Origin: a virus
IMG/VR virus record: IMGVR_UViG_3300037797_000117
Span: 1-64,000 of that record
Direction: 5' to 3' (one strand)
Length of the DNA stretch: 64,000 nucleotides
Made by a program: the position numbers and the translations under genes. The notes under the pieces were generated by a model. It was not told the DNA's origin, made no database searches, and saw nothing but the letters and a program-made list of their open reading frames with translations. Below, piece by piece: positions 12,546 to 59,075 of this stretch. The first letter of the stretch is position 1, and each line of letters opens with the position of its first letter.

Positions 12546-12574
12546 ACGTTATCCGATTCCGGGGTACGGCACAA
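12546..12574 (-). promoter_or_regulatory. Promoter with phage motif half-site, upstream of the FtsK-like gene
   Basis: TTGTGC-cgtaccccggaatcgga(17)-TAACGT. Confidence 0.7.
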
Positions 12575-12672
12575 TCTGTACCCCGGTGGCTGTTTACTGA
12601 ATCCCGACCAACCACGACGCCCGGCCCCGCCAAGGGAGCCGGGCATCATGACGTCCCGACATGGGAGTACCG

Positions 12673-13176
12673 ATGGCACACCGTGGACCCGCCGCCAAGC
12701 CGAACAAGCATGGCCGCACCCCCAACGCTGACTGGACCGAGGTTGTCGACGTTCCGTACGAGGGGCCGTCGCCGGACCTGCCGAAGCTGCCCCGCCGCAA
12801 GAAGTGGCATCCGATGGTGGAACAGTGGTGGGAGCAGGTACGGGAGATGCCGCACTGCGCGCTGTGGCGCCCCTCGGACTGGACGTTCGCTCTCGAAACA
12901 GCTTTCCAGAAGCAGGCCCACTGGGAGCTGTGCGACACCGGTGAGCAGACCACGACCGCGGCAGTGGAGATCCGGCGCCGTGAAGACCAGATGGGTACCA
13001 CCATCGAGGCGTTGCGGAAGCTGCGGATCCGGTACGTCGGCGACGGTGGGGACTCCGACTACGGTGACGACTCCGACCGGGACATCATCGTTGTCGAGCA
13101 GGAAGTTGCCGGCGGCGGCGATGCCACGGTGACCCAGATCGCGTCGCGGCGTGCCCGGCTGACCCACACCGCCTGA
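12673..13176 (+). CDS. terS: Terminase small subunit
   Basis: GPA.KP...WHP....WW...SDW...EIR.RE...G.T...RKLRI, directly upstream of TerL. Confidence 0.85.
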   Translation: MAHRGPAAKPNKHGRTPNADWTEVVDVPYEGPSPDLPKLPRRKKWHPMVEQWWEQVREMPHCALWRPSDWTFALETAFQKQAHWELCDTGEQTTTAAVEIRRREDQMGTTIEALRKLRIRYVGDGGDSDYGDDSDRDIIVVEQEVAGGGDATVTQIASRRARLTHTA

Positions 13177-13192
13177 CTGCGGGGCGTCCACG

Positions 13193-14920
13193 ATGCCGCG
13201 TACGTTGCTTCGCGCGCACCGGGATGAGGACCGTGCCCGGTCGCTCGGGTGGCTCGCGGTGGCCTGGATTGAGCATTTCGTTGTTCACGGTCCGGGTGAT
13301 GTGCAGGGTGAGCCGGTCCGGTTGACCGACGAGTTGGCCGGGTTCGTCGTCGACTGCTACGCCGTCGGTGAGCACCCGTCGAACAACCACCTGCTTTACG
13401 ACTCGGCGTTCATCAGCCGCCCCAAGGGAACCAACAAGTCTGGCCTGGCCGCCTATGTGGCGATGTTCGAGGCGTTGGGTCCGGCCCGGTTCGCTGGATG
13501 GGCGCGCGGCGGTGAGGTGTACACCGACCCGTGGGGGTTCGGGTTCCGGTACGTGTACGAGCCGGGTGAGCCGATGGGCCGGCCGGTGAAGGTGCCGTTC
13601 ATCCGGTGCCTGGCCACCGAGGAAACCCAGACATCCAACGTGTACGGGACGATCTTCTACAACCTGACCCAGGACGAGGACGACCCGCCGCTGTCGTACA
13701 TCCCGAACCTGGACTGCGGCATGGAGAAGGTGCTGCTGCCGGGTGGCGGGGAAATCCGGGTGTCTACGGCTTCGAGCTCCGCGAAGGACGGAGGCAAGGA
13801 GACGTGGATTTGCCTGGATGAGACGCATTTGTACACTACGCCCGAATTGAAGCGTATGTATAGAACCGTCACCCGGAACATGCGGAAACGCAAGAAGATC
13901 ACCGGCACGTGGTGGCTGGAAACAACCACGATGTTCGCCCCCGGCGAAGGCTCCATGGCCGAACAGACGTTCATCGAGGCCGAGAGCATCCGCGAAGGTC
14001 GCAAGAAAAGAGGCCGCAACCGCCTCCTTTATGATCATCGCTGGGGAGTATGCAAAGACCCCTCCGACGAGGCGGACCTCCGCAACGCGCTGCGCGAGGC
14101 CTACGGCGACGCCATGCTGTGGATCGACCTCGACGGCCTGGTCGACGAGTTCTACGACCTGCGCAACGAGATCGCCGATTCGCGGCGATATTTCCTCAAC
14201 GCCCAGACGTCCAGCTCGGATGCCTGGCTGGCCGAACACGAATGGGTCGCGTGCGCCCGGCCGGGCAAGGCGCTACGCCGCCGGGACCTGGTCACGCTCG
14301 GGCTCGACGGGTCGATCCGGGAAGACGCCACCGCGCTGGTCGCCTGCCGGTTCGGTGACGGGCACCTGCAACTTCTCGGCCTGTGGGAGAAGCCCGCCGG
14401 CGCCGAAGGTGACGACTGGCAGGTCGACCGGGAAGAGGTCGACGCCGCGGTGTCGCACGCGATGCGCGAGTACGAGGTTGCCGGGTTCTACGCCGACCCG
14501 GCCAGATGGCAAGACTATCTGGACAAATGGAACAACGAGTACGGCGAGAAGATGCGGGTCAAAGCCAACCAACGCCGGCCGTTGGAGTGGTGGACCAACC
14601 GCCCTACGGCGATGGTTGCGGCGTTGGAACGCTTCCACGACGCGGTACTCGACGAGCGGATCAGCTTCACCCCCGCCGCCGACCGGGCCGAAGGTAGCCA
14701 CGAGCATCAGATGGCGCTCGCGTTGACCCGGCACGTCCTCAACGCCCGACGCGCGATCAGCCGCTCCGGGTTGCAAATCCGGAAAGAACACCCGAAATCA
14801 CCACGCAAGATCGATGCGTGCATGGCGGCCGTCCTCGCTTACGAAGCCGCGTGTGACGCGGTCGCTGCCGGCATCCGCCGCCGCTCCGCCGACCTGTACC
14901 CGGCCCGCCGCATCCGGTAG
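13193..14920 (+). CDS. terL: Terminase large subunit
   Basis: SRPKGTNKS (Walker A), ICLDETH (Walker B), LGLDGS...DATAL nuclease motif, KIDACMA. Confidence 0.95.
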   Translation: MPRTLLRAHRDEDRARSLGWLAVAWIEHFVVHGPGDVQGEPVRLTDELAGFVVDCYAVGEHPSNNHLLYDSAFISRPKGTNKSGLAAYVAMFEALGPARFAGWARGGEVYTDPWGFGFRYVYEPGEPMGRPVKVPFIRCLATEETQTSNVYGTIFYNLTQDEDDPPLSYIPNLDCGMEKVLLPGGGEIRVSTASSSAKDGGKETWICLDETHLYTTPELKRMYRTVTRNMRKRKKITGTWWLETTTMFAPGEGSMAEQTFIEAESIREGRKKRGRNRLLYDHRWGVCKDPSDEADLRNALREAYGDAMLWIDLDGLVDEFYDLRNEIADSRRYFLNAQTSSSDAWLAEHEWVACARPGKALRRRDLVTLGLDGSIREDATALVACRFGDGHLQLLGLWEKPAGAEGDDWQVDREEVDAAVSHAMREYEVAGFYADPARWQDYLDKWNNEYGEKMRVKANQRRPLEWWTNRPTAMVAALERFHDAVLDERISFTPAADRAEGSHEHQMALALTRHVLNARRAISRSGLQIRKEHPKSPRKIDACMAAVLAYEAACDAVAAGIRRRSADLYPARRIR

Positions 14921-14947
14921 TCCCGGGCAGCGACGAGTCCAGACGTT

Positions 14948-15027
14948 GGAACGGGCTGGGACAGGCCGGAACAACAAGGAACGTGACGGGTCGCGATGAA
15001 ACGCGACGAGTTGCGACGAACCGCGAC
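14948..15027 (+). repeat. Eight degenerate 10-bp tandem units
   Basis: ggaacgggct gggacaggcc ggaacaacaa ggaacgtgac gggtcgcgat gaaacgcgac gagttgcgac gaaccgcgac. Confidence 0.6.
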
Positions 15028-15320
15028 GCCCAAGGTGGGGATTCCATGACCGTTTCGCAGACCGTGCCGAGGTTTACCGTGCCCCGGGTCGCGCACTGTT
15101 CCAGCGGAGGTATACGCCTGTACGCGATGTGATCACGTCAGGCATGTTCGGTAGTTCCCCGGCGGACCCGGGCTGGGAGTGGACAGACTCTGCCAAGTCA
15201 CCCACCCTGCCCGGGTTCCTGGGTTCCGCAGCACCACCGTGGACAGCCGAGCACGTCGCCCAACCGGGGCGTCGTCGCCCAGGGAGCGCGTGAGAGCCCC
15301 GGGTCGTTCCGGGAGAAGCC

Positions 15321-16034
15321 CTGTTCACGTTCAGCCTGATTCCGCGTCGTCGCCTCATCACCACCGCCGTCGTAGCAGTCCTGCTGGCCACCCTCGCCGG
15401 TAGCTCCACCGGTGCCCACGCCACCGCGGTGTCGACACCGGTGGCGGCCTACACCGACCTCGCGGTCGACGTCGAAACCGTCTCCTACGACGGGCACGCC
15501 GACGCTGCCGACCGGATGTGGCGGATGCGCCTCGACCGGGCCTCCAGGTCCGACTCGAAACTCACCGCCGCACCGGTGAAGAAGAAGGCCACCGCAGCGA
15601 CCAAGCCGGCCGCCGCGAAGAAGGCCGCCGCCGGTACCCAGACCGGGAAGGCCCCGGCGAAGAAGGCCGCCGCCGGGCCGGCTCCGAAGGCAGTACAGGG
15701 TGCCGCCGCCACCGTCGTGGCGTACGCCCGTACGCAGGTCGGCAAGCGGTACGTGTTCGCCACCGCCGGCCCGAACACATTCGACTGTTCCGGCCTGGTC
15801 AAAGCGGCGTACGCCCGGATCGGGATCAGCCTGCCCCACCAGACCGGCGGGCTCGCCGGGCGGGGCCGGTCCGTCGCCCGTAGCCACCTCGCCCCCGGCG
15901 ACCTCGTCTTCCCCAGCTCGGGCCACGTCGGGATCTACGTAGGTGGCAACATGATGGTCCACGCGTCGAACCCCCGCACCGGGGTGAAGCTGTCGACGAT
16001 CTACGCGTTCTCGTTCGCGCGCAGAATCTTGTAG
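15321..16034 (+). CDS. Secreted NlpC/P60 peptidoglycan hydrolase, probable CTG start
   Basis: FDCSGLV...PGDLVF...GHVGIY...MVHA. A signal peptide (RRRLITTAVVAVLLATLAGSSTGAHA) lies upstream of the first canonical start at 15429. Confidence 0.85.
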   Translation: MFTFSLIPRRRLITTAVVAVLLATLAGSSTGAHATAVSTPVAAYTDLAVDVETVSYDGHADAADRMWRMRLDRASRSDSKLTAAPVKKKATAATKPAAAKKAAAGTQTGKAPAKKAAAGPAPKAVQGAAATVVAYARTQVGKRYVFATAGPNTFDCSGLVKAAYARIGISLPHQTGGLAGRGRSVARSHLAPGDLVFPSSGHVGIYVGGNMMVHASNPRTGVKLSTIYAFSFARRIL

Positions 16035-16094
16035 AACCGGTCTCGGCTCCGGGCCCCCGCCGCCTTACCTCCCAGGCGGGGGTTCGGGGCCGTC

Positions 16095-16337
16095 TCACAC
16101 GAGGTGGACCTTGACAAGGTCAGAGCTGTCCTTCGGGCGGATCAGAAGCTCCGCCCCTTCGATGAGGACCTGCTCCATCATCGAGTCGTAGAACGTGACG
16201 GCCCGGTTGACTATGTCGGTGCGGGACAGTTCTTCGCGTTGGGCCGAGCGTTGTACGGCGTCGTCGACGCGCGGGAGCAGGTTGACGGTCATCCGTACGA
16301 GTGGACGCGGCTCGGCACCGCAGTCGGCATCAGACAT
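16095..16337 (-). CDS. Ribbon-helix-helix (CopG-like) regulator
   Basis: VRMTVNL...AVQRSAQREELSRTDIVNRAV. TACAAT lies 6 nt before the ATG. Confidence 0.7.
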   Translation of the reverse strand: MSDADCGAEPRPLVRMTVNLLPRVDDAVQRSAQREELSRTDIVNRAVTFYDSMMEQVLIEGAELLIRPKDSSDLVKVHLV

Positions 16338-16490
16338 GCGGCGATTGTACGCGCGTCGTCTGCATTTGTAGTACCACCCCTCCTTGAAGCTCGGGCCCCG
16401 CGGCGATACCTCCCCTGCCGCGGGGCCCGACCCCTTTCCCCACCCATCGCCCGCACCAGCATGTCGAACCAGCGGGAACGGGGGTGTGCC

Positions 16491-18002
16491 GTGCCGATTG
16501 CGACCGATGCCCCCCGCAGCCCCGGATGGTGGCTGAAGCGGCTGTTCAACATGTTGAACGACCGTGACCGGCGGCGCCGGCTGCAACTGCTGTACGACTA
16601 CCACCGCGGCAACGCACCACTTCCGGAAGGTGCCGACAACGCCCGGGAGGCGTTCGAGGCCTTTCAGCGGAAATCCCGGTCGAACTTTGCCGAGCTGGTC
16701 GTGTCGGCCATGTCCGAGCGGATGATGCCCGTCGGGTTCCGGACCGCGCTGGACGACGACGCCACCGGCGACGCCGAAGTGGGCCGGCTGTGGCGCCGTG
16801 CCGGGCTGGATGTGGTGTCCGCCGACGTCCACGACTGGATGTTCGCCCTGTCCGAGTCGTACGTCATCGTCGGCGCGGTCGACGAGGAAACCGGGGCGCC
16901 GCTGATCACGGCGGAGGATCCGCGGTGGATGGTCGGCGAGCCCGACCCGGCCAACCCGCGCCGGTTGTTGGCGGCGTTGAAGGTGATGCACGACGACGCT
17001 GACGATGAGGACCGGGCCTACCTGTTCCTGCCCGGGCAGGTGTTTGTGGCGGTGCGGCAGCAGACCCGGTACGACGCCACGATCAGCCGCGACCTGGAAC
17101 GGCGCGAGCGGGTGTACCCGTCGCCGGGGATGTGGTTCGACGGGAAAGGCTGGGACTGGTCGGAGGAACGGTCCGGGACGTTGCCACACGGCCGGATCCC
17201 GGTGGTGCGGTTCCTCAACAAATACTCCAAGGGCGAGTTTGAGATCCACACCGACACGTTGGACCGGATCAACAAGCAGATCCTGGACCGGATGGTCATC
17301 GCGACCATGCAGGCGTTCCGGCAGCGCGCGGTGCGCGGGCTGCCGCTGACCTACCCCGATGACCACCCGGCCGCCGGTCAGGTCATCGACTACAGCCAGG
17401 TGTTCACCGCCGACCCGGCCGCGATGTGGATGATTCCCGAGACGGCGCAGATGTGGGAATCGGGTCAGGTCGACCTGCGGCCCATCCTCGAAGCGGTCAA
17501 GTCCGACCTGGAGCATCTCGCGTCGGCGACCCGGACCCCGCTGCACATGCTGTCCGCGGCCGGGGTCAACCAGTCCGCCGAGGGGGCGTCCCTCGCACGT
17601 GAGGGTCTTGTGTTCAAGGTCGAGGACCGCATCGGCCGGTGTTCGTACCCGTGGGCGCAGGTCATGTCTCTCGCCCTCATCCATGCCGGGCAGCCCGAGC
17701 GGGCCGACATGGCCACGTTGGAGACGCTGTGGGCGCCGGCGAACCGGCTGTCCCTCGCCGAACGGGCCGACGCCGCGTCGAAGCTGGTCGACCTGCTCCC
17801 GAAGCGGACCCTGTTCATCAAGGTCCTCGGCATGTCCCCGGACGAAGCGGACCGGACCATGACCGAACTCACCGAGGAACAACTCCTCAACGCCCAGGTG
17901 CAGCAGGCACTCCTCGCGGTGGCACCCGACGTTGCGCAGGAACCGGCGGCCGGGCAGCCAGCGAGCCGGGACGGGGCGGAACAGCCGGAAAGCGTGAGCT
18001 GA
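16491..18002 (+). CDS. Portal protein (SPP1 gp6-like)
   Basis: SNFAELVV...GFR...IPVVRFLN...GEFE...AFRQRA...NQSAEGA...W, positioned after the terminase. Confidence 0.93.
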   Translation: MPIATDAPRSPGWWLKRLFNMLNDRDRRRRLQLLYDYHRGNAPLPEGADNAREAFEAFQRKSRSNFAELVVSAMSERMMPVGFRTALDDDATGDAEVGRLWRRAGLDVVSADVHDWMFALSESYVIVGAVDEETGAPLITAEDPRWMVGEPDPANPRRLLAALKVMHDDADDEDRAYLFLPGQVFVAVRQQTRYDATISRDLERRERVYPSPGMWFDGKGWDWSEERSGTLPHGRIPVVRFLNKYSKGEFEIHTDTLDRINKQILDRMVIATMQAFRQRAVRGLPLTYPDDHPAAGQVIDYSQVFTADPAAMWMIPETAQMWESGQVDLRPILEAVKSDLEHLASATRTPLHMLSAAGVNQSAEGASLAREGLVFKVEDRIGRCSYPWAQVMSLALIHAGQPERADMATLETLWAPANRLSLAERADAASKLVDLLPKRTLFIKVLGMSPDEADRTMTELTEEQLLNAQVQQALLAVAPDVAQEPAAGQPASRDGAEQPESVS

Positions 18003-18003
18003 C

Positions 18004-45688: not shown

Positions 45689-46018
45689 TTACCAGACGGT
45701 CTTGCCGTGTCCGACCTGGGCACTGCGTGCCCGGTTCCAGTGCGGCACGTGCTGCTGGACCGGGTTGACACCGACCATTTCGACGTAGGTCGAGGCCGGC
45801 ACGACGGTGCCCAGGCGCAGGTCGCCGGGTTCGGCGTCTCCGGGCCATTCGAAGGTAGGCAGGTGCCGGTCGACGTACAGGGTGGCTTCTTCTTCGCTGC
45901 CCCACACGGTGCGGGCCACGGTGCGGGCGTCTTTGTCGCCACGTTTGAACGCGAGAACTGCGATCCATACTTCGCCGGGTGGTGCCCAGGCGGGTGGAAC
46001 GGTGGTGCTGGTCGTCAC
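45689..46018 (-). CDS. Hypothetical protein
   Basis: GGAGG RBS, GTG start. Confidence 0.6.
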   Translation of the reverse strand: MTTSTTVPPAWAPPGEVWIAVLAFKRGDKDARTVARTVWGSEEEATLYVDRHLPTFEWPGDAEPGDLRLGTVVPASTYVEMVGVNPVQQHVPHWNRARSAQVGHGKTVW

Positions 46019-46574
46019 GGGTGTTCCCTCCGCCGGGTTGCGTTCGAGCTGGCCGTGTCGTTTTGATCAGTGCGCCGTTGTGTGTACAACGACGGGTCCG
46101 GGCTGGCAGGTACGGCCCCCGCCGACTTTCGTATTTGTGTGATCACTCTGAGCTAGGAACATAGACATGACGGTTGACCTTGGGACGGTGGCCTGACGCA
46201 CTTGCCCGACAAGGGGTCGGTTCGTTAGACGCCGCCCGTGCCCGCAGCCCTTGCTGCGCGCGGGCTATCGGCGTCTACAACCGACACACCCGTACCCGGC
46301 CCGGGGCCGGGGTGCGGGCCGAAGTCATTGCTCCATCGGGGGCGCGGCGGCGGCACAAGGTTGGGTGTGCGCGGGCGAGGCCACAGAACCCTTCCTCATG
46401 CCACCGCCGCGTTGACGCGCAGCCGATCGGGGGACGGAATGCGCGTATGAGGTGGCGGGGGGCCGCGAACTGGACGTGGCCCCCCGCCCCGACAGATTCG
46501 GGCACCATACCGCTCAACCCAGGTACCGCGAGGCCAAACTACGCGCGCTTATAACCCGACTTGAGCGGGGAAGG

Positions 46575-47489
46575 TTACGGCCCGGGCGTCGACCAACTGC
46601 TCTGGATGGTGGTGACCGCGTCGGCCAGCGTCGGCCATTCCATCCACGCCACCGACCCGGCGATGGCTGTAATCAGCAGCGGCCGCACCACGTACTGCTC
46701 GAATAGGCCGCCGGTGTTGAAGCGGGTCTTGACCGTCGCCGACCAGGACCCGGCCCGGACCGTGACGGTTTTCGGTGGTCCGACCGGATGCCACCGCCGC
46801 CACCCGACGATACGTCTGCGGCCGGTGGAGTCGCGGCGCAGCACCGGCACCGGGACCGGCGCCACGATCGGGCAGGCCGAGTTGGTCGGCGCGTCGCCGA
46901 GGCAGTGGATGAGAGATCCGGCGGCTACGGCGAGGCCGAGCCACCACGCCGACCCGGGCGCCTGAACGAAGGTGAACACGGCGAACCCGGCCGGCACCAG
47001 GACCGGAACCGAGATCCGCATTCGCCGCCGTCGGGGTCCGGTCCGGATCTGGATCCGTTGCCACCGCCACGGCAGTGTCGTGCGCAGCCCGAGGTGGGCT
47101 GACACGAATACCAGGGCGGCGGCCAGGTACGGCCCGGCCCACCGGCCGGCCGCGGCCACCACCACACCACACAGGATTGCCCACACCGCGGTGTGGGTAA
47201 GGAGCCGATGCCCGCCCAGACCCGGGCGGTCCCACGCGGTACGGGTCCGGTCGTGGACGACGCGGCTCAGTTCAGCGACCGCTTCGGCCAGGTAGCGGGT
47301 GATGGGGCCGGCGTACCGGGAAACCGTCGACTCTGGGTGGTCCAGGTCGGGAATCAGTGCCCACCCGGCGCACACCGCCGCGCCGATGGTACGTACGTGC
47401 AGCGCCACTGGGTGCCCGGCGGCGTCGAGGACCGCGCAGCCGGCGAGCCAGCCGGCGGCGCCACTCATCGCGTGCTGCTTGCCCATCAT
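46575..47489 (-). CDS. YdjM-like membrane-bound metal-dependent hydrolase
   Basis: MMG..HA.SG, PDLDHP.S, HR.LTHT, H.LGD. Confidence 0.85.
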   Translation of the reverse strand: MMGKQHAMSGAAGWLAGCAVLDAAGHPVALHVRTIGAAVCAGWALIPDLDHPESTVSRYAGPITRYLAEAVAELSRVVHDRTRTAWDRPGLGGHRLLTHTAVWAILCGVVVAAAGRWAGPYLAAALVFVSAHLGLRTTLPWRWQRIQIRTGPRRRRMRISVPVLVPAGFAVFTFVQAPGSAWWLGLAVAAGSLIHCLGDAPTNSACPIVAPVPVPVLRRDSTGRRRIVGWRRWHPVGPPKTVTVRAGSWSATVKTRFNTGGLFEQYVVRPLLITAIAGSVAWMEWPTLADAVTTIQSSWSTPGP

Positions 47490-47740
47490 CGGCGGCGTCC
47501 CCGGTCGGTGGAGCGTCGACCTTTGCGGCCTTCGTTGGCGTCCGGGGCGCGGTGCCCGACGTGGTGAAAGCCGCAGCCGCCCTGGTCGGGTCGGCAGTAG
47601 TAGGCGCCGAGGCTGCCCCGCGGGTGAAGACCGCTGCCGATCATCTGTTCGCGCCGGGCGACCGCAGCTTCCCGGGTCTCCAGACGTTCCTTCTTCTTCT
47701 TGTCTCCGCATCGGCGGGCGACGGACTGGGTGAACGGCAT
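47486..47740 (-). CDS. Small Cys/His protein
   Basis: C..K...AYYC....C.FHHVGH. Confidence 0.6.
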   Translation of the reverse strand: MPFTQSVARRCGDKKKKERLETREAAVARREQMIGSGLHPRGSLGAYYCRPDQGGCGFHHVGHRAPDANEGRKGRRSTDRGRRR

Positions 47741-47741
47741 G

Positions 47742-47963
47742 TCACACCCCCGCCGCGGGGGTGACCATGCCAGGCGCGAAGTGGACGATGACGCCGGCGA
47801 CGACCCGCTCGGGGTGGCCTGCGGTGCAGGGAACCACCGCGACGGCGGTCACGGTCGGGTACTGGCCTTTGACGCGGCGCAGCTCCCGGAGCAGGCAGCC
47901 ACAGCGTGCTTGCAGGTCGTATCCGACCGGAGCAAGGGGTGGGGCTGTTTGAAGATCAGACAT
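47742..47963 (-). CDS. Hypothetical protein
   Basis: GAGG RBS. Confidence 0.55.
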   Translation of the reverse strand: MSDLQTAPPLAPVGYDLQARCGCLLRELRRVKGQYPTVTAVAVVPCTAGHPERVVAGVIVHFAPGMVTPAAGV

Positions 47964-48113
47964 GGCGGTAACCTCTTCTTTAACAATGGGGCGATTCGTC
48001 GTCCCGCCCCAGGAAGTCGCTCTGGCCTTCGGGTCCGGGTCGGGTGTCGTGGGGCCGTTTGGGGAAACGATTGAGAAGCGGGGCCACCTCTCGGGTTGGC
48101 CCCGCTTCGCTTG

Positions 48114-48524
48114 TCAGAAGGGCCGTTCGAGGATCGTGCCGTCGGGCCAGGCGATCATAGGGACGGTCTTCACGGCCTGGCCGTCGGTGACTCCCAACCT
48201 CCAGATGTCACCCCAAACGGGGCCCTGGCCATGCAGGTAGCCGACGAACTGGTGGCCGGGGAAGGCGTCGACGAGCTCTTGAAGCTCCTCTTCTACGAGG
48301 GACAGCCTCACCGGGTACGGCCATGGAAACGCGACCGCGGTCGCGGTACGCGCTTCCAGGATCCCGTCGTCGGTCTCGACCTGTTCTGATCTTTCGACCA
48401 AGTACAGTCCCTTGCGGTTTTCCATGGCGTGTTCCCGGCTGCGGTACGGGCTGTCCTTGTACTCGAACCACCGCAGCGGTGGTTCGATCGTGATTTCTCC
48501 GCGCATGGAGCTGTCGTAGCCCAT
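48114..48524 (-). CDS. Conserved actinophage hypothetical protein (DUF6205-like)
   Basis: MGY.S...GEI.I.PPL.W...LQELVD.F..H.F.G...G.G...GD.WRL.V.DG. Confidence 0.7.
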   Translation of the reverse strand: MGYDSSMRGEITIEPPLRWFEYKDSPYRSREHAMENRKGLYLVERSEQVETDDGILEARTATAVAFPWPYPVRLSLVEEELQELVDAFPGHQFVGYLHGQGPVWGDIWRLGVTDGQAVKTVPMIAWPDGTILERPF

Positions 48525-48610
48525 CTCGGTCCTTCCTCGGATTCGGGGGTCAGGCGGTGGGGCCGCCCGGCTCGTCATGCGGGTCGCACTCCGGCATGAC
48601 GTTCTCCTGT

Positions 48611-48937
48611 TCAAGCGGCTGAGGAACCGGAGCGGCGGCGGCTGCCGCGGCGGGCGGCCACCCGCAGCATCAGGTTCATCGGGTTGACCCCGGCCCGGGT
48701 AGCGATCTGGTCCCAGGTGGTCATGGCGGTGGACTGTTCGTGGATGGTGGAGGCCGCGTCGTCGATGATGGCCTCGTACAGGCCGGTCATCGTCGTGAGG
48801 TGTTCGAGGACCTGCCGGGCGGCGTCGAGCCGGCGGCCGGGGTCGTCGAGGTCTCTGATCAGCCCCGGGGACGGCACCGTGAAGTAGCTGCCGGCCAGGC
48901 GGGTGATGCACGCCTCGTCGAGGGGGCGGCGGCGCAT
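48611..48937 (-). CDS. Hypothetical protein (TWDQIA..AG helix motif)
   Basis: Coupled ORF. Confidence 0.6.
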   Translation of the reverse strand: MRRRPLDEACITRLAGSYFTVPSPGLIRDLDDPGRRLDAARQVLEHLTTMTGLYEAIIDDAASTIHEQSTAMTTWDQIATRAGVNPMNLMLRVAARRGSRRRSGSSAA

Positions 48938-49248
48938 CAGGCCCGGCCTGTCCGGGCACGGATCGCGGTGGCGGCCGCGACAACAGCGGCGCCGGCGGCT
49001 TCGCGACGGCGGTCGGTGGCCACGTAGGACGGGATGTCCCGGATGAGGTCGCCCGCGATCCCGGACTGGTCGCCGGCGGCGATCAGTCCGGCCATGTAGG
49101 CCTCGGGTAGCTCGCCGAGGATGTCCGACACCTTCGCGGCGATGACATCACGGGCGGCGGCCTTGATTCGGAACGTGGCGAGTGCCCGGTAGGCGGCCCG
49201 CCGGGACCGGACGTAGCTGGGGATGTGCTCCCCGCCGGGGTGGTTCAT
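48937..49248 (-). CDS. Hypothetical protein
   Basis: GGAG RBS before ATG 49248. Confidence 0.6.
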   Translation of the reverse strand: MNHPGGEHIPSYVRSRRAAYRALATFRIKAAARDVIAAKVSDILGELPEAYMAGLIAAGDQSGIAGDLIRDIPSYVATDRRREAAGAAVVAAATAIRARTGRA

Positions 49249-49298: not shown

Positions 49299-49328
49299 TT
49301 GTACCGTACCCGGGGTACCGAGTATTGT
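49299..49328 (+). promoter_or_regulatory. Promoter with palindromic operator in its spacer
   Basis: TTGTAC-cgtacccggggtaccgag-TATTGT. Confidence 0.65.
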
Positions 49329-49434
49329 CCAGAATCGAAGTAGGTTGCCGACCCGGGGAGCTGGACCCCGGCCGGTGGCCCCATGAGATGGAGCACCGAT
49401 GCGTCGCCACCTTGTTCTCGTACGCCCGGAACCC

Positions 49435-49776: not shown

Positions 49777-50336
49777 AGCGGTCGCCGATGACCCGGTCGC
49801 AGACCCCGATGTCCCGAAGCCCGATGACGCGGACCCGGATGAAGCGGCGGCCGGCGGACAACCACCTGACCGGCGACGAGTGGGATGTCCAGGGCCAGAT
49901 GTTGCTGGTCCGCACCGGTGGCCTGTGTGAAGGGCGCACCCCGGCGTGTATCGCGCCGGACGGCCTGGTGCTGGGGATGCCCCGGGAGCAGGTGGAGATC
50001 CAGCACCGGCGGGCGCAGGGCATGGGCGGTACGGCCCTGGTCGAGGCGAACAACCTGGCGAACCTGTTGCTGTTGTGCGCGCGGTGTCACCGGTGGGTGG
50101 AGTCGCGGCCGTCGCCGCCGGATGACGGGGCGGATCTGGCCCGGCGGCGGGGTCTGTGGGTCGGGCATGACTACCGGGACGGGGTGCCGGTGCCGGTTGA
50201 GGAGTATCCGCTGGTGTTGGCGTCGGGGCGGATGGTGTTGCTGGATCCGGTGGTGCCGGAGTATCGGCGGCATCCGTCGGAGTGGTCCGGAGAATGGTCA
50301 CAGCTTGTGCCGTACCCCGGGTACGGCTACAGTTAG
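49773..50336 (+). CDS. HNH-type endonuclease
   Basis: R.GGLCE...C...HRRAQGMGG...NLLLLCARCHRWVE. Confidence 0.8.
   Translation: MKRSPMTRSQTPMSRSPMTRTRMKRRPADNHLTGDEWDVQGQMLLVRTGGLCEGRTPACIAPDGLVLGMPREQVEIQHRRAQGMGGTALVEANNLANLLLLCARCHRWVESRPSPPDDGADLARRRGLWVGHDYRDGVPVPVEEYPLVLASGRMVLLDPVVPEYRRHPSEWSGEWSQLVPYPGYGYS
50305..50333 (+). promoter_or_regulatory. Promoter with a perfect 19-bp palindrome
   Basis: TTGTGC-cgtaccccgggtacggc-TACAGT. Confidence 0.75.
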
Positions 50337-52087: not shown

Positions 52088-52116
52088 TTGTGTCGTACCC
52101 CGGGTGCGAGTAGCGT
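52088..52116 (+). promoter_or_regulatory. Promoter with palindromic operator in its spacer
   Basis: TTGTGT-cgtaccccgggtgcgag-TAGCGT. Confidence 0.7.
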
Positions 52117-52173
52117 CACGGGCAGGCAAGGGAGAACTGGACTCCCCCACTACCCCGAGATGAGGCATCCGCC

Positions 52174-52404: not shown

Positions 52405-52425
52405 CATTCGCTGGCAGGAAGGGAA

Positions 52426-52743: not shown

Positions 52744-52787
52744 CATTTCCCCCCACCACCCGCCCAGACCAGAACGGACCCCGACCC

Positions 52788-53414: not shown

Positions 53415-53469
53415 CCGTTTTCTGGTGTGGTTGGCCGGGTTGCCGAGGGTTCGGCAGCCCGGCCACTTC

Positions 53470-53499
53470 TTGTTCCGTACCCGGGGTGCGGGGTAGTGT
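53470..53499 (+). promoter_or_regulatory. Promoter with palindromic operator, upstream of whiB
   Basis: TTGTTC-cgtacccggggtgcgggg-TAGTGT. Confidence 0.7.
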
Positions 53500-53545
53500 T
53501 GGTGGTGGTGGGGAACTGGACCCCGCCACCGGAGATGGAGACACG

Positions 53546-53806
53546 ATGGCAACCACGGAAAGGATGTTCGCCGATCTTCTGGGCGGCACGGAGGAATGGC
53601 AGGAGCGCGCGCTGTGCGCGCAGACCGACCCGGAAGCGTTCTTCCCGGAGAAGGGCGGGACGACCGGGGACGCGAAGCGGATCTGCCGCCGATGCGAGGT
53701 TCGTGGGGAGTGCCTGGAGTACGCCTTGGCCGGAAACGTCAAGTTCGGGATCTGGGGTGGGCTGACGGAGCGGGAGCGCAAGAGGTTGAAGCGCCGCGCG
53801 GGGTAG
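53546..53806 (+). CDS. whiB: WhiB-family regulator (WhiB2/WhmD-like)
   Basis: WQERALCAQTDPEAFFPEKGG...AKRIC..CEVR.ECL.YAL...FGIWGGL.ERER. Confidence 0.95.
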   Translation: MATTERMFADLLGGTEEWQERALCAQTDPEAFFPEKGGTTGDAKRICRRCEVRGECLEYALAGNVKFGIWGGLTERERKRLKRRAG

Positions 53807-53828
53807 ATCATCCACCCGCCCACACGTC

Positions 53829-53857
53829 TTGTATGGAATCAGGGGTACGGGTACACT
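53829..53857 (+). promoter_or_regulatory. Promoter with motif half-site
   Basis: TTGTAT-ggaatcaggggtacggg-TACACT. Confidence 0.7.
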
Positions 53858-53951
53858 GGGGGCGGCTGATCTTGGCCTGACCCCCCTGTACACCCCTGGA
53901 GGCATCGTAGTGAACGGAGCAGACACCGTGGAGGAGGAGGACACCTCCACC

Positions 53952-54458
53952 ATGAACCCGGAAAAGGAACGCCAGGAACGGGAAAGGGCCCAACTCGCCG
54001 ACGAGCGCGAGGCCCGCTACCGGCAGCGGCGTAAAGACCTCACCGCCGACACCACCATCGACCCACGCCGCCGCGACCTGTACCTGGACCGCACCCTGTG
54101 GGACAGCTCCCGGATCGCCGCCGAGCTCGACATCAGCGACCACCGCCTGTCAACCATGCGCGGCGGCCGGCGGACCGCCGGCGGGGTGACCCTGCCGCAG
54201 CGGCCGTACCCCCACCCGTCCGGGTTCATCCCACCCGACGAGATCAGAGGTTACGTGTTCGGCAACCCCACCTACGCGTGGGAAGCCGGCCGGGTCCGCC
54301 AGTTCGCCGTCCGGCGGGGCCTGAACCTACTCAACCTGGACACCGGCCGGATGCGGAAGATGCGCGCCCGGTACGGCCGCGCCCGGCACGGACGCACCAC
54401 CGCGTCGAAGGTTCACAAGGCCGGCACCCCACGGAAGGGCAAGAAGACCACCGACTGA
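53952..54458 (+). CDS. Putative HTH DNA-binding protein (AlpA/Xis-like pattern)
   Basis: LWDSSRIAAELDIS...P.PD...P.W....V..F, basic tail, GGAGG RBS. Confidence 0.55.
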   Translation: MNPEKERQERERAQLADEREARYRQRRKDLTADTTIDPRRRDLYLDRTLWDSSRIAAELDISDHRLSTMRGGRRTAGGVTLPQRPYPHPSGFIPPDEIRGYVFGNPTYAWEAGRVRQFAVRRGLNLLNLDTGRMRKMRARYGRARHGRTTASKVHKAGTPRKGKKTTD

Positions 54459-54606
54459 GGAAATGGGCGAGGCCCGCACCGACCCGGAACAGGACTGGAA
54501 TCCGAGGTCTGGCCAGCGCGGGCCTCTGAGATGAAGCACGACTACAGGTCCCCCGTCTCCGGGTTGTTGGCGCCGCGTAGGTAACGGTACCAGCGCGCCC
54601 GGACCA

Positions 54607-55584
54607 ATGTCATCTTCTGTTGAGGAGATCACCGTGTCCGTGTCCGCGCCCCCCGCCCCGCCCCGTGTCGACGTGTCCGGCTACAACGGCCCGACCATGC
54701 TGGACGACCAGATCCGGCTGGCCGAGGTCCTCGCGACTGCGACCCGGGTCATCCCGGTCGACTACCGCGACCAGCCCGGCGACCTGCTGGCCCTCATCTA
54801 CGAGGCGCAGGCCCTCAACATTCCGGTGATGACCGCCGTCCACAACCTCTACTTCGAGGACGACGGCTCGTACGGCATGTCGGCGCAGTTGATCGGGGCG
54901 TTGCTGCGCCGCGGCGGCGCCGACTGGTCCACCACCATCGAGCAGGGTAAGTCGTGCACCCTGGTGTTCACCTTCGCAGACGGCCGCACCGGTGGAGAGG
55001 CCAAGTACACCATCGGCGACGCGCTTCGGGCCGAGATCGCCAACACCACCAACTGGATCCGGTACCCCGACGACAACCTGTACGCCCGTGCGGTGTCGCA
55101 GGGCGCCCGCCGGTTCGCCCAAGACCTCACCGGTGGCCTGGCCTACGTCCCCGGCGAACGGACCACCGCACCCGCCGTGCAGGAAGAGGCCGTCGACCCG
55201 GACGTGGCCGAGTTCCTCGCCCAAGCTGACGGGGCTTCCACCACCCAGATCCAGGCCCTGACCGACACCGCCCTGGCGAAGAAGTCCAACGGCCTGGCCG
55301 CCAAGCCCGCCGGCGGCGGGAAGTCCGTCGAGGACCGGCTGCGGGAGCTGTGGCTGGCCGCCGCCGCCCGGGAGCTGGCCGCCGCCACCGCACCCGACGC
55401 CGACGCCGGCGAGCCGGCACCCGAGCCCGACCCGCAGCCGGCGGCGGTCCCCGGTGACGGGCACGCCCTCACCGCCCCCGCCGGCGAAGGAGACCTGCCG
55501 TGCCGCTGCCCGGCCGCTGCCGTCCTCGCCACCGGCGAACACGACCCGGCCGTGTGCCTCAACACCGCGGCGGTGACGCCGTGA
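54607..55584 (+). CDS. RecT-like ssDNA annealing protein
   Basis: IP..YR.QP.D.L...L.IP.M.A...MSAQL..AL...W..YP...L.ARA.S..AR. Confidence 0.8.
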   Translation: MSSSVEEITVSVSAPPAPPRVDVSGYNGPTMLDDQIRLAEVLATATRVIPVDYRDQPGDLLALIYEAQALNIPVMTAVHNLYFEDDGSYGMSAQLIGALLRRGGADWSTTIEQGKSCTLVFTFADGRTGGEAKYTIGDALRAEIANTTNWIRYPDDNLYARAVSQGARRFAQDLTGGLAYVPGERTTAPAVQEEAVDPDVAEFLAQADGASTTQIQALTDTALAKKSNGLAAKPAGGGKSVEDRLRELWLAAAARELAAATAPDADAGEPAPEPDPQPAAVPGDGHALTAPAGEGDLPCRCPAAAVLATGEHDPAVCLNTAAVTP

Positions 55585-56063
55585 CCGCGCCGGTCGACCT
55601 GGCCTTCACCGTGCGGCTGCCCTACGCCGCCGCCATCCGCAACGGCACGAAGCCGATCGAGAACCGGGGGCGGCCGCCGCACGGCAAGTACCTCGGCGCC
55701 CGGGTCGCGTTGCACGCCGCCATGACCTGGTCGAAAACCGGCGCCGCCGACCCTCGGATCCGGACCTGGTGGTGGGGACCAGACCGCGCGGACCACCCCG
55801 TCGACCCCGTCGACTTCTGGCCACTCGTCGGCCGGCTCATCGCCGTGGTCACCTTCGCCGGGTGGCACCAGGCCGACCGGACCACACCGTTCGCGACATG
55901 CTGCCAGCCGTGGGGCGACCGCATGTACAACGGCTCCCTCGACACGGTGGCCTGGCACATCGAGCTCGCGGACATCACCCCGATCGACCCGCCAACCTCG
56001 CGGATCCACGGCCGCCTGTCGGTGCCGTTCACCCTTGCCGACCCGATTGCCGACCCGCGATGA
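55581..56063 (+). CDS. ASCH-domain protein
   Basis: TVR.PYA.AI..G.K.IENR...ALHA. Confidence 0.75.
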   Translation: MTAPVDLAFTVRLPYAAAIRNGTKPIENRGRPPHGKYLGARVALHAAMTWSKTGAADPRIRTWWWGPDRADHPVDPVDFWPLVGRLIAVVTFAGWHQADRTTPFATCCQPWGDRMYNGSLDTVAWHIELADITPIDPPTSRIHGRLSVPFTLADPIADPR

Positions 56064-57079
56064 GCGGCGTCGCCCTACGGACCGCGTCCGACCTGGTCGC
56101 CGAAACCCGGGCCATGGTGGGGAAGGCGTTCACCGCTGAAAACAGCCGCCGCCAGGCCGAACGCGACCCGACCCGGCTCACCATGTCCGGTCTCGGCGGC
56201 TGCACCCGCGCCGCCGCCTACTCGATCGCGGGTACCCCACCGTCCGACGTTGCCCTCCCGGAAGAGGCCCGCCAAGCCCTCCTCGGCACCTGGATCCACG
56301 AACATCTCCTGCCCGGCATGGCCGAATTCGCCGGCCCCGACGTCGTGGTGGAACAGCCGGTGAAACTCGCGGCCGCCGGCCTCGTCATCACCGGCACCTT
56401 GGACATGGCCGTCCACGACGTGGTGTGGGAGGTGAAGTCGGTCAAGGAGTGGCGTCTACACGGCGTGCGCCGCAAAGGGGTCTACGCCGAACACCGCGTC
56501 CAGGCCCGCGGCTACGGCCTGGCCTACCTCCAGGCCGGCAACCCGGTCAGGTGGATCGTGTTCATCTACATCGACCGCGCCACCGGCGAAGTCCACATCG
56601 AGGCCGAGCCGTTCACCAACGCCGCCGCCCTGTCCGTCATCGACCGCCTCGACCGGATCAAATTCCACGCCGGCGACGACCCCGACCGGGCACCCCGCGA
56701 GGGCCGCGGCCCCGGCGTGTCCCTCGCGTGCGACCGCTGCCCGTGGCTACGCCGCTGCTGGGGCGACGACGCAGTCCCCGGCAAGACCGGCCCGCAGCGC
56801 ACGATCGCCCGCACCGACGCCGGAATCGAGTACGCCCTCGACCTGTACGGCCGGGCCGCCGCCGCCGCGTCGCAGGCCGAACGCGACAAGACGTTCGCGA
56901 AGCTGATCCTGGCCGCCGCCCCCAACGGCCAGTACGGGTCGTGGATCTACGGCCGGGGCAGGGGAAGCGAAAAGTGGGACCACGACCAGATCGCCGCTGA
57001 CTACGCCGCGGCCGGCTTGGAGGTCCCCAAGGCACCCACCGCCGGGAAGATCATCGTCAAGCCGGCCCCCCAGAAATAG
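56060..57079 (+). CDS. Cas4-like / PD-(D/E)XK exonuclease
   Basis: S.LGGC.R...GT.IH...GTLD...EVKS...Q...Y...CDRCPW...C. Confidence 0.85.
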   Translation: MSGVALRTASDLVAETRAMVGKAFTAENSRRQAERDPTRLTMSGLGGCTRAAAYSIAGTPPSDVALPEEARQALLGTWIHEHLLPGMAEFAGPDVVVEQPVKLAAAGLVITGTLDMAVHDVVWEVKSVKEWRLHGVRRKGVYAEHRVQARGYGLAYLQAGNPVRWIVFIYIDRATGEVHIEAEPFTNAAALSVIDRLDRIKFHAGDDPDRAPREGRGPGVSLACDRCPWLRRCWGDDAVPGKTGPQRTIARTDAGIEYALDLYGRAAAAASQAERDKTFAKLILAAAPNGQYGSWIYGRGRGSEKWDHDQIAADYAAAGLEVPKAPTAGKIIVKPAPQK

Positions 57080-57476
57080 GCGACACCCCACGGAAGTCCG
57101 GTGTCTTCGGCCACTTACGGAGTACCGTGTTCACCGCTACTACCCGGTCTGCGGGCATGCGGCCCGACGGTGGGGATGCCCCGGAAACTATTCCGGCTCC
57201 CACCCGAGGGCATCGGGTAGGAGCCGGAATGTTGGCCCTTGTCAAGGGGCCACGGGCCAGGAGGGTCGAACAACTAAGCCGAGTTCGCAGCACGTCTCAG
57301 TCTCACTCAAACCAACCTCAACAGATCCCTGAGGAAAACACCCAGAAGATCCCGATGAAAACAGGCCCTGCGCGGGCGTCACGCGTTAACGAGTATAGCG
57401 GAACCGCGGGCGATGCATCACCGCCTACTTGTTAACACGTCCGGCGTGTCGGGGCTTCGAGTAGGAAGCAGACCAG

Positions 57477-58628
57477 ATGGCCGGCATGTCGGCATCCGAC
57501 GCCGATTTCGAGATCGAGATCGAGCCGGGGCGGGTTCCGCCCCCCCACACACCAGCCCCCGACTGGATCACCATGTCGGCCTTCTCCGCAGCGGCACAGA
57601 AGCTGCACAAGGTCCTCGGCATGCACGTCAACCGGGACCGCGGCGACGGGATCGTGTGGCCCAGCACCCGCAGCCTGGCCGCGCTGATGGGGTATAGCCG
57701 CGGCGACAAGATCAGCACGTTGTTGAAGGAACTCGCGGCCGGCAAGGCCATCGAGATCCGCCGCCGCGGCGTGCCCTGCCGCAACGTCTACGTCTGGCAC
57801 CAGCTCCCACCCGAGGGCTACACCGGCCCGGTGACGTTGAAGGACTGGTACAGCCGCAACCGGCCGCTGCTGGACCAGATGCGGAAAGCCGAGCAGGCCC
57901 GCCGCAAGGCCCGCCGCAAGACTTCCGCAAAAGCCCAGGTCAACCCAGATACCCCCGATCCAGGGGGCACCCAAGCGGACCCGGGGTGCCCCCCCGATGG
58001 AGGGGATCAGGCCCACCCCGATTCAGGGGATCCAGATACCCCCGATCCGGGTCGGGAACAAGAAGAAGAAGAACAAGAAGAAAAGAACCCCCCCCCTACC
58101 CCCCACGACGAACCGGCGGCGCCCGACGACGGCGAGGCCGCAACGGCGGAGGGGGAGGAACCTGAAGATCACATACAGACCCGCATCGACGATGCCGTCG
58201 TCGAGGTGCGGAAGCTGCGGCCGGGGTGGTCCCCTCCGCGCGTAGTGAAGGTTCTCCGGGCTGCGTTGGGTGAGGGCCGGGATCCGGCGGTGGTGTTCGC
58301 GGCGGTACTGCTGGTCGCTGCCGATCCGGCGACGAAGCACCCGTCCCGGTTGAACCAGGACGGGGATTGGTGGCCGGCGGCGGAGCGCGCGGTTCGTCGG
58401 CCCCCGCCGGCGCCGCCTCGTGTTTCGACGGTGTGGTGCGACCGGCACGGCCACAGGTACCCGGCGGGTGAGGACTGCGGTCTGTGTATGGCCGAGGCCC
58501 GGAACGGCGGCTACGGGACTTCTGACGGGCCGGGCGGGGCATCTGTGATCGACCTCAGCGACGCTGAGTGGGCGCGGCTGCCGGCGGCGACCCGTGCCCG
58601 GTACGCGGCGGCTCGGAGCGGGTCGTGA
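57477..58628 (+). CDS. Replication initiator (N-terminal HTH)
   Basis: WPS.RSLA.LMG.S...L.EL...I...RNVY, internal repeats, C-terminal C..H...C..C. Confidence 0.8.
   Translation: MAGMSASDADFEIEIEPGRVPPPHTPAPDWITMSAFSAAAQKLHKVLGMHVNRDRGDGIVWPSTRSLAALMGYSRGDKISTLLKELAAGKAIEIRRRGVPCRNVYVWHQLPPEGYTGPVTLKDWYSRNRPLLDQMRKAEQARRKARRKTSAKAQVNPDTPDPGGTQADPGCPPDGGDQAHPDSGDPDTPDPGREQEEEEQEEKNPPPTPHDEPAAPDDGEAATAEGEEPEDHIQTRIDDAVVEVRKLRPGWSPPRVVKVLRAALGEGRDPAVVFAAVLLVAADPATKHPSRLNQDGDWWPAAERAVRRPPPAPPRVSTVWCDRHGHRYPAGEDCGLCMAEARNGGYGTSDGPGGASVIDLSDAEWARLPAATRARYAAARSGS
57945..58087 (+). repeat. Putative replication origin: four iterons plus an A-rich tract inside the initiator gene
   Basis: ccccgat(cc/gg/tc)agggg at 57953, 57992 and 58016, a variant at 58040, then gaacaagaagaagaagaacaagaagaaaagaa. 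Confidence 0.7.
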
Positions 58629-59023
58629 CCGCCGCCGCCCCGGCGCCGGCCGGGGGCGAGCGGCGTCCGGGGCCGCCGGCGCTGTCGCGGATCGAGGACT
58701 GCCCGACGTGTGGGCAGCGGATCACGTCGGTGATGGACCGGGTGGGGAAGCCGGTGAGGTTCAACTGCGACGACAACGGTAAGGCGGTGCGGTCGCCGGT
58801 CGGTGAGTGGTGGGCGGCCCGGTTCAGTGACCGGTGGTGTGTGGTGCGCCCGGAGCGGGGTGAGGATCCGCCGTCGACGGGTGGTGGGGTGCGGTATCGG
58901 CAGCACAACTGTCGGCGGACGGTTGAGGAGTTGGCTGCGGAGGATGTGTTGCGGCAGGTGTTCGGTGTGGTTGAGGTGTTGTCGTTGCCGGATGGTCCGG
59001 TACAGGGGGAGATGGGGCGTTAG
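58625..59023 (+). CDS. Hypothetical Zn-binding protein
   Basis: CPTCG...H.C, coupled to the initiator gene. Confidence 0.65.
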   Translation: MTAAAPAPAGGERRPGPPALSRIEDCPTCGQRITSVMDRVGKPVRFNCDDNGKAVRSPVGEWWAARFSDRWCVVRPERGEDPPSTGGGVRYRQHNCRRTVEELAAEDVLRQVFGVVEVLSLPDGPVQGEMGR

Positions 59024-59046
59024 CTGCCACGACACCCCGGCCGGTC

Positions 59047-59075
59047 TTGTATGGTTTCCGGGGTACGGGTAACCT
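59047..59075 (+). promoter_or_regulatory. Promoter with motif half-site
   Basis: TTGTAT-ggtttccggggtacggg-TAACCT. Confidence 0.7.

Follow-up and report, generated by a model that had tools for sequence, protein, structure and literature searches.

Several regulators that act on many dispersed sites of one replicon are familiar, such as KorA/KorB with their global regulon in IncP plasmids, and the conserved inverted repeats of phage phiC31 offer a further parallel. In the phage-plasmid P1, where one repressor serves about 20 operators at the promoters of a temperate phage of ~100 kb and the operator word is shared by related phages, 22 operators of C1 have been described (PMC8546580). In cluster A mycobacteriophages (L5, Bxb1) and Streptomyces phage R4, the site motifs of the repressor-stoperator systems drift gradually among relatives (PMC6550527, PMC10276819), and stoperators are 13-bp asymmetric sites, read by a monomer and oriented with transcription, which are located mostly away from promoters and block elongation (PMC9283540, PMC6550527). 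Then, could the sites of a dispersed phage regulon be two-fold symmetric and be built into the promoters themselves? Here, we explore this question for bases 1-64,000 (hereafter, the window) of the 166,387-bp IMG/VR virus record IMGVR_UViG_3300037797_000117, where a set of promoters have a 17-bp dyad, yCGTACCCnGGGTACGr, between their -35 and -10 boxes.

The record has direct terminal repeats, an estimated completeness of 100% and a GC content of ~69%; positions above 64,000 are coordinates of the whole genome. The host group of the phage is the filamentous actinomycetes, and its large terminase and the one of Streptomyces phage Samy share 66% identity. Its gene content includes a TraB-type DNA-transfer module, a giant sliding-clamp protein and 38 tRNA genes. 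Based on codon usage, a crude gene calling gave 246 genes covering 85% of the genome, and the remaining 15% was treated as intergenic. About 90 proteins from 45-112 kb were put through Pfam, few of which could be assigned to a family. No match was obtained by megablast of 49.0-54.5 kb against phages, no close relatives were found in viral contigs by means of the DUF932, TraB and P0007 proteins, and a search of phage and plasmid collections with the DUF932 protein returned distant matches only.

The proposed promoter-operator unit

The first-pass annotation of the window had proposed seven promoters with a palindrome or half-site in the spacer as one regulon. All seven are present, four with full or near-full dyads and three with one perfect half, and the perfect 19-bp palindrome GCCGTACCCCGGGTACGGC is found at 50309-50327. 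A single regulon of host-type promoters sharing the spacer dyad also stands, not with seven members, however, but with 23-24 spread over 12.5-138 kb:

12546-12574, minus strand: promoter P12574, TTGTGC-(CCGTACCCCGGAATCGG)-TAACGT, 17-bp spacer, left half perfect; would drive the FtsK/TraB-like gene 11349-12512(-)
49299-49328, plus strand: promoter P49299, TTGTAC-N18-TATTGT, with the dyad CCGTACCCGGGGTACCG at 49304-49320; first promoter of the rightward early array
50305-50333, plus strand: promoter P50305, with the perfect palindrome; would drive the DUF932 and HEPN genes
52088-52116, plus strand: promoter P52088, TTGTGT-(TCGTACCCCGGGTGCGA)-TAGCGT
53470-53499, plus strand: promoter P53470, 18-bp spacer; would drive the whiB-like gene 53546-53806
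53829-53857, plus strand: promoter P53829, TTGTAT-(TGGAATCAGGGGTACGG)-TACACT, right half alone perfect; would drive 53910-54458; orthologous promoters in the relatives L059, L060 and L061
59047-59075, plus strand: promoter P59047, TTGTAT-(TGGTTTCCGGGGTACGG)-TAACCT; would drive the operon 59116-64731
66241, 67863, 69676, 70300, 72827, 73608, 82673, 84534, 87928, 90663, 97685, 118329, 127313 and 137870, plus strand: further promoters with the composite pattern
66207 and 137172, minus strand: further promoters with the composite pattern
100617: possible 24th copy, a match to the position weight matrix with a degenerate -35 box (CTATGC)

The composite pattern consists of TTGNNN-N16-19-TANNNT plus a GGGTRC/GYACCC half-site in the spacer, and occurs 23 times in the genome, while 40 Markov shuffles gave 0.8 +/- 0.9 matches and never more than 3. 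Such a composite was needed because the bare palindrome GTACCCNGGGTAC, with no more than two mismatches, was found in the window 7 times against 4.1 expected, which is not significant. A scan with the E. coli promoter consensus recovered none of these promoters, since their -35 and -10 boxes are of the actinomycete type. With the position weight matrix (PWM) derived from the sites, all 23 score at least 18.2; below them, at 17.5 or less, come mainly these dyads again, read on the other strand, together with the copy at 100617. The generic frame TTGNNN-N17/18-TANNNT has 26 matches in the whole genome (13.8 expected), of which 23 carry the word and two more overlap such sites. Consequently, only one independent canonical promoter, an AT-rich one at 110301, is free of the operator.

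The first-pass annotation had also held that an equal frequency of the motif in coding DNA would speak against a regulon. Instead, 22 of the 23 sites lie in the intergenic 15% of the genome, and the 23rd overlaps the terminal 32 nt of a gene. The operator is likewise confined to the promoters: all matches to the operator-only PWM scoring at least 17 fall within them, with no strong copy elsewhere, and the 7-mer CGTACCC occurs outside them at chance frequency (37 found, 38 +/- 6 expected). For the same reason, the "related arms" earlier noted at 5137-5172 and 46290-46316 do not belong to the regulon; in addition, their halves are 20 and 12 nt apart rather than 1. Both are GC-rich perfect or near-perfect inverted repeats (hairpins), each enclosing two CGTACCC-type halves, and as the extra spacings amount to about two and about one helical turns, they may be a secondary or looping site. 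Of the two half-sites in the inverted repeat reported at 12559-12586, one is part of the P12574 operator, while the second, additional and everted, is found directly upstream of the -35 box of that promoter. As a separate observation, coding DNA is strongly depleted of the generic TTGNNN-N17/18-TANNNT frame (1 match, about 14 expected genome-wide from shuffles), which suggests selection against stray host-type promoters.

The consensus of the unit is TTGTGy-CGTACCCnGGGTACGG-(g)-TAcnGT, or TTGyny-N17/18-TAnnnT in general form. T1-T2-G3 of the -35 box and T1-A2-T6 of the -10 box (TAnnnT) are invariant at all 23 sites, each of which thus has TTGnnn and TAnnnT at 16-18 bp, as in promoters of the sigma-70/HrdB type. 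The dyad occupies unit positions 6-22, and at all 23 sites it begins with the base that ends the -35 box. The spacer is 17 bp long at 13 sites and 18 bp at 10, so that only the distance from dyad to -10 box varies, by 1 nt. Within the dyad, the outer CG, the inner CC and the mirror images of both are conserved best. A perfect CGTACCC half is present at 22 of the 23 sites, on the left only at 11, on the right only at 9 and on both sides at 2 (50305 and 87928), while the weaker half mostly keeps the CG...CC frame with an A/T-rich middle (ATT, AAA, TTC and similar). The asymmetric variants CCGTACCCCGGAATCGG and CCGATTCCGGGGTACGG are reverse complements of each other, and the promoters use either orientation with respect to transcription, as 12574 and 137870 show. 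Since the perfect half occurs on either side with equal frequency, the reader should be a two-fold symmetric, that is dimeric, protein rather than the inherently asymmetric RNA polymerase, and this use of the halves is the strongest internal argument that such a protein would read the spacer word. Beyond the 29-bp core, the flanks are unrelated among the copies, and the likeness therefore reflects selection, not recent duplication.

Compared with the P1 C1 regulon, the set is alike in having 23-24 sites at promoters, between 12.5 and 138 kb; it is unlike in that the P1 operator is an asymmetric 17-mer (ATTGCTCTAATAAATTT), whereas here a two-fold dyad holds a fixed register in the spacer and the host is an actinomycete. 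With the L5, Bxb1 and R4 stoperators it shares an actinobacteriophage background and a site that could serve one repressor in many copies, dozens of them genome-wide in those phages. A stoperator-type system can nevertheless be rejected, because the sites here are symmetric, have their strong half in both orientations and always lie in the promoter spacer. The lambdoid CI/Cro operators (434-type) are closer in geometry, being dyads of 14-17 bp that overlap promoters, have half-site centres ~10 bp apart and are read by HTH_3 dimers. Here, the symmetrised PWM over positions 6-22 describes a two-fold symmetric site of this kind, the half-site centres, as read from the sequence, are also ~10 bp apart, which is the geometry of a helix-turn-helix (HTH) dimer, and two paralogous HTH_3 proteins are encoded. 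However, the lambdoid operators are clustered in two switch regions between the divergent cI and cro genes, while those described here are single, are spread over 23 promoters and do not lie beside the XRE genes, whose products carry a C-terminal Cys/His zinc-type motif. An operator that overlaps the core promoter is known for P22 Arc at Pant/Pmnt and for CopG at Pcr (PMC2724298). One dyad may similarly serve two divergent overlapping promoters in the window, at the following feature:

49303-49331, minus strand: candidate leftward promoter TGGACA-N17-TACGGT, proposed from a reading of the sequence

This candidate would share the P49299 dyad and faces the operon 45689-49248(-). Arc and CopG are, unlike anything convincing in this phage, ribbon-helix-helix (RHH) proteins, and they act at a single locus.

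Probable target genes and metagenomic relatives

All 23 promoters point toward the next downstream gene or the tRNA array, and at 18 of them the -10 box is 33-95 nt from the start codon. The targets include the FtsK/TraB-like gene (12574), HNH, DUF932, HEPN and whiB genes, the TraB-like module, the dnaB helicase gene (82673), the genes for SSB, a MazG-like protein and a vWA-TerF-like protein, and many genes without known function. In the tRNA array (118.7-139.7 kb), P118329 precedes the first of the 38 tRNA genes, while P127313 and P137870 are located directly behind tRNA genes inside it; as three sites head or interrupt an array of tRNA genes, the units are transcription signals rather than translation signals. 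With dnaB, SSB, the TraB-like transfer module, whiB and 38 tRNA genes among the targets, the earlier label of "host-takeover" genes is not borne out. The unit is absent from the structural module (13-45 kb) and from the minus-strand genes at 148-166 kb, and none precedes the giant clamp gene. The regulon thus amounts to a near-complete map of host-polymerase-dependent transcription units in an uncultured 166-kb actinomycete phage, and separates a half of the genome under operator control (~90 kb) from modules without the operator, namely the structural genes, the integrase and the 148-166 kb block.

At 4 of the 23 promoters a very stable hairpin is located upstream, with a folding energy below the 5th percentile, so that some units are bounded as cassettes. 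For example:

53432-53465, plus strand: terminator-like hairpin, 15 pairs, -33.7 kcal/mol; ends 4 nt before the -35 box of P53470, at a cassette boundary

Are the units restricted to this phage? The TraB-like protein has metagenomic homologues at 41-56% identity, and the relatives' contigs are syntenic, with TraB, a small minus-strand gene and dnaB. The word is kept at orthologous promoters in at least 12 metagenomic relatives with ~45-55% protein identity, and so is the side of the strong half. In 11 genomes, the orthologous dnaB promoter retains TTGnnn and TAnnnT as well as the left half, which reads CGTACC in eight of them and GGTACC or TGTACC in two, and its right half is always of the G-W-W-T-C-S kind. 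The orthologous promoter of 53910-54458 has the opposite asymmetry in three relatives, with the strong half on the right, which is clear in two of them. Counted over the relatives, eleven dnaB promoters and four promoters of 53910-54458 preserve both boxes and the word. Around these promoters the intergenic DNA cannot be aligned, and the proteins compared are only 41-61% identical. Two such promoters each are found in L035, L064, L067, L084 and L093. Variant words also occur: L084 has GGTACCC, while L037 has CCTTAC at both its promoters (word CCTTACGCGGTAAGG), one of them as the dyad CCTTAC-GCG-GTAAGG at the same place in the promoter. The design is absent from more distant TraB-bearing elements (identity of 38% or less), the composite promoter-plus-operator pattern has no match in IMG/VR, and in 185,579 species genomes it has 17 single matches, which is chance level. 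Judging from these sequences, the promoter-operator unit appears as a conserved trait of one phage lineage, whose word drifts slowly. The change of the word with the lineage in L037 argues for a co-evolving phage factor, and together with the chance-level result in the species genomes it makes the phage-encoded control that had been postulated probable.

As a side observation, the 387-aa protein encoded at 11349-12512(-), beside terS, is a second, shorter TraB-like translocase paralogue, ~31% identical over 300 aa to all the TraB relatives (tblastn). In L037, the dnaB helicase (4361-6997) contains an intein carrying a LAGLIDADG endonuclease, with 878 aa against 454 aa here.

What may read the spacer word

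We favour, with moderate confidence, the reading that the spacer dyad is the operator of one phage-encoded dimeric repressor. The 29/30-bp units would serve as promoters for the RNA polymerase of the host, carrying its primary sigma factor (HrdB/sigma-70 type). Sigma70_r2, sought in all six frames, gave no match in the phage at an E-value of 1 or less, although a divergent phage sigma could escape such a search, and the host holoenzyme is therefore the likely reader of the promoters. Spacers of 17/18 bp are the optimum for unaided sigma-70-type promoters, which with the host holoenzyme need no activator, and a dyad filling the spacer of an otherwise complete promoter is in the classical position for a repressor. 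A two-fold symmetric protein docked on yCGTACCCnGGGTACGr between the two boxes would block binding of RNA polymerase or formation of the open complex. In this way, ~23 transcription units over ~90 kb would be co-repressed, including the early genes, whiB, the dnaB/SSB replication genes, the TraB-like transfer genes and the tRNA array, and the structural/lysis module, the 148-166 kb minus-strand block and the integrase would escape. One perfect and one weaker conserved half (CG-WWW-CC type) at most sites could give each promoter its own affinity. The graded affinity suggested earlier is plausible, with PWM scores from 24 to 9 and the strong-half side kept at the relatives' orthologous promoters. 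The idea of one phage-encoded dimeric regulator has fared well as to the dimer and probably as to the phage origin, while the protein itself is to be sought among several candidates.

Such a repressor could maintain lysogeny, as an immunity-type repressor, or shut off early genes in lytic growth, and we lean only slightly to the former. In favour of lysogeny, the phage has a probable integrase gene, in front of which lies the one canonical promoter that lacks the word. For early shut-off, the best candidate regulators lie behind operator-promoters of their own, and the word is unusually stable between distant relatives.

Some observations sit uneasily with a repressor of this kind. Immunity repressors usually diverge fast, and a word that is unchanged across relatives at ~50% protein identity is unusual for one; such stability is in keeping with a timing regulator, with a host factor, or with a regulon so large that its word could hardly be changed. 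The register to the -35 box, fixed at 23 of 23 sites, is stricter than occlusion needs and could reflect joint action with sigma region 4 or with the polymerase. Conservation also extends to the weak half (G-W-W-T-C-S), a finding that could indicate a second reader or a function in the promoter rather than tuning of affinity. In addition, an operator cluster was looked for beside the XRE genes and none was found next to either, and no candidate is tied to the word by covariation, the relatives' contigs being short and nearly all with the same word.

The opposite sign of regulation was considered next to repression. A spacer-bound phage factor, alone or with the phage WhiB on sigma region 4, might be required for firing, either by MerR-like remodelling or as a kind of promoter password. 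The exact register to the -35 box with a 1-nt variation toward the -10 box, the deviation of -35 boxes such as TTGTGC and TTGCGT from TTGACA, and the conserved whiB gene with its own operator-promoter within the cluster are all consistent with activation, as is the constancy of the word across distant relatives, which is typical of timing activators such as that of the T4 MotA box. MerR-family promoters resemble the present ones in that the dyad is centred between the two boxes, but they have over-long spacers of 19-20 bp and are activated by untwisting of the DNA, whereas all 23 spacers here are 17 or 18 bp, the unaided optimum. Therefore, the MerR-type mechanism, toward which the spacer position had earlier been thought to point, is unlikely. 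Moreover, with their invariant T1-T2-G3 and T1-A2-T6 the promoters look self-sufficient, an activator whose own gene depended on such promoters would be unable to set off the cascade upon infection, and WhiB proteins are not known to read palindromes. Hence we regard activation in general as improbable. A bolder form of it, a password frozen lineage-wide in exact -35 register at every host-type promoter of these phages with a conjugative module, with a dimer acting on RNA polymerase (for example with the phage WhiB on sigma region 4) and with the strong/weak-half asymmetry encoding timing or strength, seems a degree less probable again; if true, actinobacterial RNA polymerase would have a co-factor system that reads the spacer, for which no counterpart is described.

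About as improbable as that bolder form is a conserved reader from the host, for example a global regulator of actinomycetes or a metal/stress sensor, through which the early promoters would respond to a host signal. With a fixed reader of this kind, phages whose proteins are just ~45-55% identical would be held to the same word, as is found. The TAC/GTA arms around C- and G-tracts, as in ATATACCCCTNAGGGGTATAT, also resemble the type-2 operators of Streptomyces CsoR, in which a TAC-X9-GTA inverted repeat flanks such tracts (PMC3902906). However, the spacing here is TAC-X5-GTA and no gene of the CsoR family was found in the phage, and this operator type is rejected. The variant words in L037 (CCTTAC) and L084 (GGTACCC) speak against a host reader in general, and so does the chance level of the composite pattern in the species genomes, though host sites need not share the promoter frame. 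We know of no actinobacterial regulator with this consensus.

That there is no dedicated reader at all, the promoters being a family from one ancestral cassette or the palindrome acting through DNA or RNA structure, is very improbable: all copies share one 29-bp design and some stand behind terminator-like hairpins like cassette borders, but their flanks are unrelated, the dyad lies upstream of the predicted start and is hence untranscribed, the perfect half swaps sides with the register kept, the word is retained at orthologous sites across deep divergence, and a 7+7-bp arm with a 1-nt loop makes a poor cruciform.

Under the favoured reading of a phage-encoded repressor, the system would be a large, clean instance of familiar phage gene control, a dispersed-operator regulon of the P1 or L5 kind; its size, strict geometry and stable word are the notable points, and its mechanism would be ordinary in kind. 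Once the repressor is identified, the 29-bp unit might provide a tightly repressible promoter for high-GC actinomycetes.

Candidate regulators and accompanying features

Family scans of the ~90 proteins from 45-112 kb, supplemented by six-frame searches for families, yielded few DNA-binding candidates. The proteins that enter into the search for the regulator are the following:

93828-94232, inside the P90663 operon: XRE-134, HTH_3 protein with a C-terminal CGTxxGYxxHxRxxExxCxxC motif
106020-106523, plus strand, isolated among minus-strand genes: XRE-167, a 36%-identical paralogue of XRE-134 with a different helix 3
53910-54458, plus strand: protein d, 182 aa, with a predicted long N-terminal helix, HTH-like stretch (SRIAAELDISDHRLSTMRGGR), beta-hairpin and basic tail
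48611-48937, minus strand: protein a, 108 aa, encoded in the leftward operon adjoining P49299; residues 53-89 weakly resemble the TetR_N HTH
53546-53806, plus strand: WhiB-family protein (PF02467, E-value 9e-26), a regulated gene, 51-72% identical in the relatives L059-L061

The HTH_3 proteins encoded by the phage are XRE-134 (E-value 1.4e-10) and XRE-167 (E-value 2.2e-12), and for this word both are no more than candidates. We tentatively place XRE-134 first, although even this assignment is doubtful. Its recognition helix, (S/T)QQxLSxWE, is kept in the closer orthologues, which are 41-57% identical, and the L093 contig of one orthologue has two operator-promoters, one of which heads the orthologue's own cassette. 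For XRE-167 the role seems unlikely. It is clustered with genes for a Xis-like HTH_17 and a MarR-like protein, and in this regulatory cluster (105-106 kb) neither a copy of the word nor convincing repeats were found. It was also noted that hundreds of other metagenomic proteins contain the CGTxxGYxxHxRxxExxCxxC motif in tandem, with 3-12 copies, and that it is similar to a zinc-finger family of phages, PF24623, which is found in the 673-aa protein 88022-90043.

The protein behind P53829, which the first-pass annotation had put forward, keeps a place as the less likely alternative to XRE-134, which is at least as good. It is HTH-like, its HR(I/L/V)SxxRG(G/A)R stretch is conserved, and its gene sits behind whiB in five relatives. 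Pfam and PHROGs gave nothing for it. Its AlphaFold 2 model has a predicted local distance difference test (pLDDT) score of 60.6, and the fold searches stayed within noise, with a best Foldseek E-value of 2.4 and, for the best excisionase match of VIA-align, a Z of 3.5 and a root-mean-square deviation of 2.5 over 55 residues. The 48611-49248(-) pair is hardly likely to be the source: protein a has only the weak TetR_N similarity and no homologue in a word-index search, and family searches gave nothing for its partner b (48937-49248, minus strand), nor for the 238-aa protein behind P66207. What is left of the probability belongs to something else or to a host factor. The candidates are not discriminated because almost all the relatives read share the word.

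Other DNA-binding proteins are WhiB, a possible accessory transcription factor, and two proteins with GntR-N only at 132 and 141 kb. The RHH protein that had been named as a second candidate was not recovered: there is none in the window, and the sole weak RHH_1 match in a called gene, 111864-111950, is sub-threshold and lies beside the integrase. The only MerR/HTH_17 match is the 64-aa Xis-like protein 105091-105285(-), which is not a full-length MerR regulator. The small divergent gene beside dnaB, 82295-82579(-), was dropped as a regulator, having no DNA-binding signal and only a weak glycine-zipper match in an orthologue.

The operator-free promoter at 110301, TTGCCT-N18-TAAGAT, precedes the 431-aa probable tyrosine integrase 110426-111721 (PF00589, E-value 1e-5, just below the family cut-off), which is followed by a 79-aa protein with the weak RHH_1 match. 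Thus, 110301-111980 looks like a candidate integration/excision cassette outside the regulon.

In addition, a conserved 5'-leader module is present between several of the promoters and the start codons (dnaB, whiB and others):

49345-49398, 52120-52173, 53500-53545 and 54480-54560 in the window, 82705-82796 in the genome, and in the relatives L033, L035, L036, L037, L059, L067, L072 and L084: hairpin whose loop, (A/G)ACUGGAC, is invariant, and behind it a GAGAUGGAGCAC box containing the ribosome-binding site

Its stems vary and yet stay paired (GGGGA/CCCC, GGGAG/CUCCC, GGGUG/CACCC, GGGCG/CGCCC, GGAAGG/CCUCC and others). No Rfam family matches the hairpin module, at which RNA processing may take place or a translational regulator may act.

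Finally, two patches of overlapping CGTACG / GTCCGTAC repeats are located at 75045-75185 (L008 11045-11185), just 3' of the small HTH gene 75238-75549(-). The CCnGG core of the operator is absent from them and its outer CGTAC is present, and they could be a transfer locus or a sink for the regulator.

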